The notes beneath the pieces are model-generated. The model searched no databases. It worked only from the letters and a program-made list of their open reading frames with translations, and was not told the origin of the DNA. A stretch of DNA of 64,000 nucleotides, from NCBI RefSeq assembly GCF_003991155.1, contig NZ_CP031293.1. One strand, written 5' to 3'. The position numbers and the translations under genes were made by a program. Positions 46,751 through 47,497 of this stretch are shown one piece after another (position 1 is the first letter of the stretch; each line of letters opens with the position of its first letter). This DNA is from Escherichia coli (GTDB taxonomy: Bacteria; Pseudomonadota; Gammaproteobacteria; Enterobacterales; Enterobacteriaceae).

Positions 46751-46759
46751 GTGATCTGG
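46751..46759. repeat. Right copy of the IS1 target-site duplication
   Basis: GTGATCTGG directly after the IS1 right end. Confidence 0.7.
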
Positions 46760-47497
46760 TTTTTGCGGATGCAAGCCAAATTCAAGTGGATAAGTGTGTT
46801 GAGAATTTCGTATTAGTTTCAAGAGACACGCTTTCATTATTTCTCCCGATGCTCAAGGAGGAGGCATTAAAACTTCATGCACATAAAAAAGCTCCTTCAT
46901 TACTCGTTCATCACTGTATCAGAGATATTCCTGTTTTTCAGGAAGTTGCGCAACTGTCGCAGAATAAGAATCTTCGCTATGCAGAAATGCTACGTAAAAG
47001 GGCATTAATCTTTGCGTTGTTATCTGTTTTTCTTGAGGATACGCAGTTTATACCGTTACTTCTGAACGTGTTGCAACCGAATATGCGAACACGAGTTTGT
47101 ACGGTCATCAATAATAATATCGCCCATGAGTGGACATTAGCCCGAATCGCTAGCGAATTGTTGATGAGTCCAAGCCTGTTAAAGAAAAAATTGCGCGAAG
47201 AAGGTACGTCATATTCACAGTTGCTTACTGAGTGTAGGATGCAGCGTGCTTTACAACTTATTGTTATATATGGGGTTTCAATTAAGCGAGTTGCAGTATC
47301 CTGTGGATATCACAGCGTGTCGTATTTCATTTACGTTTTTCGAAATTATTATGGGATGACGCCCACAGAGTATCAGGAGCGATCGGCGCAGGAATTACCG
47401 AACTGTGGCCCGGCGGCAAGTATAGCTGCGCAAGGGAATTTTTACGGCACTGACCGTTCTGCGGAAGGAATAAGATTATAGAGTTTTACTCAGACAT

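Follow-up and report, generated by a model that had tools for sequence, protein, structure and literature searches.

IS1 is strongly polar, and the polar IS1 mutations of gal and lac are the classical cases of insertional inactivation by this element. The gadX locus described here resembles them in having a complete IS1, an 8-9 bp target duplication and an AT-rich coding target, and also in that the upstream open reading frame (ORF) ends just inside the element. No difference in kind separates this gadX::IS1 allele from classical insertional inactivation by IS1. The event is a textbook one, the resulting pseudogene is already present in RefSeq, and the finding is known in kind.

A second group of described systems comprises the hybrid promoters which, as an earlier note on this DNA had stated, the ends of IS1 create at other loci. 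The literature agrees on this, under the condition that such a promoter arises only when a −10 element is correctly placed (PMC8764528; reviewed in PMC9330008). Examples are afaA in ST131 (PMC8764528) and bla TEM-1 (Prentki 1986, cited in PMC9330008). In ST131, IS1 lying in the same orientation as the gene had different outcomes: afaA was raised, osmB was about 4-fold lower and ugd was unchanged (PMC8764528). The gadX::IS1 junction shares with the hybrid promoters an IS1 end facing an ORF in the same orientation, with an outward hexamer that may count as −35-like, but it differs from them in lacking a −10 at 16-18 bp, the best candidate having 2/6 matches.

The same element has also been found at the same locus in other natural isolates. 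In within-patient variants of ExPEC, IS1 lies between gadX and gadW and GadA is increased (Levert 2010, PMC2947995). That insertion is intergenic, whereas the one described here falls at gadX codon 34 and destroys the frame. Other gadX::IS1 alleles of E. coli, most of them marked as pseudogenes by PGAP, likewise have IS1 within gadX, and they differ from the present one in position, IS1 subtype, gadX allele and orientation. Finally, the part of gadX that lies downstream of IS1 encodes the entire domain crystallised as a stand-alone AraC-family DNA-binding domain (PDB 3mkl). However, the crystallised protein was engineered and produced from a vector, while neither a junction promoter nor a good ribosome-binding site was found for the remnant.

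We consider it highly probable that this remnant is the downstream part of a gadX gene which IS1 recently inactivated by inserting after codon 34, that is, an ordinary null allele, and, jointly with this, that the insertion arose inside ST457, where a sub-clade that has spread widely now carries it.

Structure of the interrupted gadX gene

The window, by which we mean the whole 64,000-nt stretch of Escherichia coli DNA that was analysed, contains the acid fitness island of this species and its flanks, with the gene order dpp, bcs, treF, ccp, gadA, gadX, gadW, mdtFE, gadE, hdeDAB and chu. The interrupted gene was identified as gadX by sequence identity (see below) and by synteny, as it occupies the slot of the acid fitness island between gadA (44112-45512, + strand) and gadW (47850-48578, + strand), the latter being an intact paralogous activator located 3' of gadX. 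Normally, gadW is partly co-transcribed with gadX, and it also has promoters of its own. The native start codon of gadX is an ATG at 45881 on the + strand. A putative promoter, recognised by consensus scan only, lies 5' of the gene at 45815-45842 (+) and consists of TTGACT, a 16-nt spacer and TACATT, with a TG before. At the other end, the gene of the GadY sRNA (47493-47606, − strand; Rfam RF00122, 150 bits) is intact and antisense to the gadX 3' UTR.

The gene is split after codon 34 by a complete IS1 of the IS1B type (768 bp, 45983-46750, + strand), which lies in the same direction as gadX; no other copy of IS1 is present in the window. Its ends are canonical (GGTGATGCTGCC... and ...GGAGTCATTACC), and its imperfect terminal inverted repeats of about 23 bp (GGTGATGCTGCCAACTTACTGAT / GGTAATGACTCCAACTTATTGAT) align as expected. 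Both frames of the element were recognised, namely insA (46038-46313, +) and insB' (+), whose end is the TAA at 46733-46735, together with the A6C programmed −1 frameshift motif (AAAAAAC) at 46289. PGAP labels the element as 'IS1B family transposase, programmed frameshift'. The target-site duplication GTGATCTG is present at 45975-45982 (left copy) and at 46751-46758 (right copy), the insertion being at nt 95-102 of gadX. The duplication has 8 bp and possibly 9, as a ninth base, a G, could equally well be counted as the first base of IS1. It was confirmed by the empty site of strain 1517k, which both flanks overlapped by 9 nt.

The 5' stump of gadX, also a pseudogene piece in RefSeq, comprises codons 1-34 (45881-45982, + strand). 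Its ORF runs 8 codons into IS1 up to the stop codon TAG at 46007-46009, giving a 42-aa hybrid, MQPLHG...GGDLGDAANLLI. The stump keeps the promoter-like site and the start codon, and its hybrid ORF ends 29 nt 5' of the GTG of insA. Stationary-phase or acid-induced gadX transcription, running in the sense direction into IS1, could couple InsA/transposase expression to stress.

The 3' piece (46751-47481, + strand) is annotated in RefSeq as a gadX pseudogene 'missing N-terminus', both pieces of gadX thus being pseudogenes according to PGAP. From 46753 onwards it contains in frame codons 33-274 and the stop codon TAG (47479-47481), codons 33-34 being those repeated by the duplication. Followed upstream, the gadX frame stays open as far as a TGA within IS1 (46690-46692), and no ATG, GTG or TTG in this frame was found between that TGA and the GTG at 46786. 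The earlier note had given GTG 46786 and ATG 46849 as the first in-frame starts, and both coordinates proved correct. The GTG (46786-46788, +) is the first canonical start, corresponds to V44 and opens a 231-aa ORF (46786-47481), and the first in-frame ATG (46849-46851, +; MLKEEALKLHAHKK...) corresponds to M65 and opens a 210-aa ORF. The note was also right in attributing to this piece the whole AraC-type HTH, as the Pfam domains HTH_18 and HTH_AraC match GadX residues 164-242 (47146-47382, +), which are fully kept; HTH_18 corresponds to residues 121-199 of the 231-aa ORF. The uninterrupted 274-codon frame with its native start is absent from the window, IS1 lying after codon 34, and because the frame is broken at this point the locus must be classified as a pseudogene remnant and not as a functional member of the gadX family.

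Public annotation of the remnant is inconsistent. The 210-aa ORF from ATG 46849 has been deposited as 'GadX' or 'acid resistance regulon transcriptional activator' on 93 contigs (among them BAX18065.1, BAX22941.1 and STE29763.1), while RefSeq gives a pseudogene. Records of this kind present the 210-aa remnant as if it were an ordinary GadX. In FDAARGOS_1297, PGAP annotates downstream of another, similarly inserted IS1 a GadX of 254 aa that starts at M21.

Promoters, start codons and possible products of the remnant

Two sites were revealed by the consensus scan of the + strand up to gadW, namely the promoter-like one 5' of gadX (45815-45842) and the promoter at the left end of IS1 (45990-46017), and no other promoter-like site was found between the latter and gadW. 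A relaxed scan, accepting at least 7/12 matches, did not identify any sigma70-like site across the IS1 right junction either. The right inverted repeat contains the outward −35-like hexamer TTGGAG (46737-46742), which has 3/6 matches to TTGACA. The −10 candidates found 16-18 bp past it (GTTTTT, TTTTTG and TTTTGC) have 2/6 matches and lack A2 and T6, so the flanking DNA does not supply the −10 of a hybrid promoter. As the −10 required at 16-18 bp is absent, a hybrid promoter is not formed here and, as the junction has no promoter, transcripts of the remnant can only stem from IS1 read-through. This is in line with the statement of the earlier note that expression of the remnant would need either such read-through or an internal restart.

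The gadX, gadA and IS1 left-end promoters all point into the remnant, IS1 being in the sense orientation, and read-through from any of them could possibly transcribe it. The sole terminator-like hairpin of IS1 on this strand (46643-46660) was no more stable than shuffled sequence, and the C/G composition of the insB part, which is mostly untranslated, gave no clear signal of Rho loading. IS1 would nonetheless be expected to exert its polarity on this allele. If the allele is a null one, transcripts coming from the gadX promoter or reading through from gadA would enter IS1, and translation of the stump would halt 27 nt inside the element. The remaining 240 gadX codons would have neither a promoter of their own at the junction nor a good ribosome-binding site, and no functional GadX would be obtained; the remnant would presumably yield no protein product at all. 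The remaining regulation would then be borne by the intact GadW, GadE and GadY and by the rest of the acid fitness island.

With respect to translation, the Shine-Dalgarno pairing was −3.3 kcal/mol for GTG 46786 and +1.9 kcal/mol (no pairing) for ATG 46849, compared with −8.7, −6.9 and −5.3 kcal/mol for gadA, insA and gadW, respectively. The median score of all nearby NTG codons was −2.2 kcal/mol, and the pairing at both candidate starts does not exceed what random NTG codons give. The claim of the earlier note that neither start has a convincing Shine-Dalgarno sequence was thus borne out. However, it carries less weight as evidence than was implied, because the native ATG of gadX has a score of only −0.9 kcal/mol and is therefore equally poor, which makes the weak pairing a soft argument against internal translation. 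In addition, the junction RNA (46700-46880) was less structured than its shuffled versions (z = +1.27). Since the native start is poor in Shine-Dalgarno pairing and the junction RNA is unstructured, initiation independent of such pairing is conceivable. An InsB-GadX fusion generated through −1 frameshifting at A AAA C (46720-46724) was also considered and discarded as negligible, because it would require two successive rare frameshifts.

All these data bear on whether IS1 read-through or read-out might yield a low level of an N-terminally truncated GadX, with V44 (231 aa) or M65 (210 aa) as its first residue, that acts in a constitutive or dominant-negative manner at gad boxes. This protein would keep the linker helices and the HTH. 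Residues 137-255 of GadX were crystallised and solved alone (3mkl; match E = 1.9e-67) and, as a consequence, a truncated product, if made, could carry a folded DNA-binding domain. The sense orientation of IS1 without a convincing terminator, a native start that is equally poor in Shine-Dalgarno pairing and the unstructured junction RNA are also in its favour, as are the listing of the 210-aa ORF as GadX on 93 contigs by gene callers or depositors, the 254-aa GadX called by PGAP in FDAARGOS_1297 and the clustering of same-orientation insertions at the 5' end of gadX (see below). However, a prediction by a gene caller is no proof of expression, and the remnant has neither a junction promoter nor a Shine-Dalgarno sequence. 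Moreover, GadX residues 75-239 can be aligned to ToxT residues 108-267, and the truncation takes away 43-64 residues upstream of this alignable stretch. We take the GadX region upstream of the part that can be aligned to ToxT and Rns to be the beta-sandwich that forms part of the N-terminal domain in those two proteins. In ToxT and Rns the N-terminal domain is required for activity. The single-sequence AlphaFold2 model of GadX was too poor for interpretation (mean pLDDT 42, with values below 50 in the N-terminal half). Given also that zero substitutions since the insertion leave no signal of purifying selection, and that other insertions, found in both orientations, leave the downstream piece with an incomplete HTH or none, we regard a functioning truncated GadX as improbable. 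The earlier note had called it possible but unlikely, and the lack of a junction promoter, the occurrence of insertions in both orientations and the loss of the downstream HTH in some of them uphold that judgement.

An effect in cis was considered separately, as it can coexist with the null-allele explanation. IS1 could break the link between the gadX promoter and both gadW and the target region of GadY, or drive the latter two by transcription derived from IS1, and thereby alter the output of gadW or gadA. Some backing for this comes from the increased GadA of the ExPEC variants with IS1 between gadX and gadW (PMC2947995), from the frequent presence of IS1 in the gadA-gadX-gadW intergenic regions of other genomes and from the fact that gadW and GadY are intact in the window. 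On the other hand, no promoter is predicted at the IS1 right end, and an insertion within the coding sequence is enough by itself to account for a phenotype. The effect may also be small because, as is well established, gadW has its own promoters. Altogether, we think it rather unlikely that such an effect, and not the loss of GadX protein, is the consequence of importance.

Origin and spread of the allele

When gadX was rebuilt by removing IS1 and one copy of the duplication, a gene of 825 bp and 274 codons was obtained, which is 100% identical to intact annotated alleles of several genomes, including those of strains TCM3e1 and 1517k. Because there have been zero substitutions since the insertion, the open frame of the remnant is uninformative on selection; the remnant is still a perfect ORF because there has been too little time for decay. 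Its intact look is thus due to the recency of the insertion and is no sign of selection.

The identical junction was found in 33 complete genomes, with at least 99.9% identity over 2151 bp. These genomes come from humans, cattle, poultry, pigs, pets, mink, sheep and wastewater, and from several continents. Their number also bears on the possibility that the split gene is an artefact of assembly, or that the 231-aa ORF arose by chance. An artefact is excluded because the 33 independently assembled genomes share the same junction and target duplication, and the ORF is 100% gadX, so that the probability left to this explanation is negligible.

Three of the 33 junction carriers (CREC-544, MRY15-117 and MRY15-131) have been typed as ST457 in published papers. 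Strain 1517k, which also belongs to ST457, has an intact gadX with an empty site, and over 37 kb only 8 SNPs separate it from the window. As this ST457 strain keeps the empty site, the insertion most probably arose within ST457 and marks a successful sub-clade. Strain LWY24 (NZ_CP054556.1) has a junction 100% identical to that of the ST457-typed strains, yet it is an ST93 strain according to the title of its paper (PMC8025056). Papers naming both ST457 and gadX excepted, the literature search found no description of the allele as a marker of an ST457 sub-clade.

If the allele is a null one that arose within ST457, it cleanly marks the lineage of a multidrug-resistant sub-clade that has spread globally, and members of this sub-clade would live without GadX, one of the two partly redundant activators of glutamate-dependent acid resistance. 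In addition, the ST457 gadX::IS1 strains and strain 1517k would constitute a natural near-isogenic pair on GadX loss in a successful pathogen clone. Beyond such bookkeeping, the gadX::IS1 finding matters little.

Other IS1 insertions around gadX and further features of the window

For comparison, 5,426 complete E. coli genomes were searched, on the premise that a selected C-terminal product would give gadX::IS1 alleles located near the 5' end and sharing one orientation. Besides the 33 junction carriers, 27 further genomes have IS1 in the same orientation in the region from the gadX promoter to gadW. The same-orientation bias of the first search was discarded as an ascertainment effect of the query, since a control query with IS1 reversed gave 51 genomes with the opposite orientation. 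Thus, 111 of the 5,426 complete genomes (33 + 27 + 51), about 2%, carry IS1 in or adjoining the gadX-gadW region.

Within gadX itself, mapping gave at least 16 independent insertions, of which 9 point in the direction of the gene and 7 against it. Counting the gadX ATG as position 1, those in the same orientation are located 5' of gadX at −273, −226, −121, −80 and −27, in gadX at 8-29, 51-59, 79-87, 95-102 (the window), 116-124, 446-454, 479-494, 654-663 and 811-819, and further 3' in the gadX-gadW spacer and downstream of gadW. Insertions in the opposite orientation, which were mapped within gadX only, are at 148-152, 242-250, 298-306, 333-340, 485-494, 503-517 and 638-648. With those at nt 503-517, 638-648 and 654-663, the downstream piece lacks some or the whole of the HTH. 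The presence of insertions in both orientations, some of them removing the HTH, is consistent with loss of function and not with selection for a C-terminal product. The GC content of the IS1 target region is 0.32-0.42, compared with 0.51 for the whole window, and the pattern of insertions is that of an AT-rich target region of IS1 in which function has been lost, or regulation disturbed, many times over. Such a number of independent IS1 events at gadX-gadW is of possible interest for the evolution of acid resistance.

Within the first 125 nt of gadX there are 5/9 same-orientation insertions and 0/7 opposite ones (Fisher p = 0.03), a comparison that covers the mapped events among the matches listed and whose 125-nt cut-off was chosen post hoc. 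The cause of this clustering could be either target preference or selection. A more far-reaching proposal is that selection produced it, and that the ST457 sub-clade and the other same-orientation lineages clustered at the 5' end make truncated GadX by read-through and in this way rewire the gad regulon; we hold this to be very improbable. The allele of the window (nt 95-102) is the only gadX::IS1 allele which was seen as a large clade (33 genomes).

Finally, some minor features of the window were observed. Strain 2016C-3878 is 100% identical to the window at positions 32001-64000. In this otherwise near-identical strain bcsG is split by IS621, at a site corresponding to about 12095-12109 of the window, where bcsG is intact because IS621 is absent. 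The ldrD/rdlD type I toxin-antitoxin unit forms a tandem duplicate at 10911-11795, with copies about 96.5% alike and Rfam rdlD matches at 11007-11072 and 11490-11555, both on the − strand. Further Rfam matches, all of them expected for the region, correspond to naRNA4 (3010-3090, − strand), to the ES205 sRNA between gadE and mdtE (53386-53457, − strand) and to the thermoregulator of the shuA/chuA 5' UTR (63128-63159, + strand).
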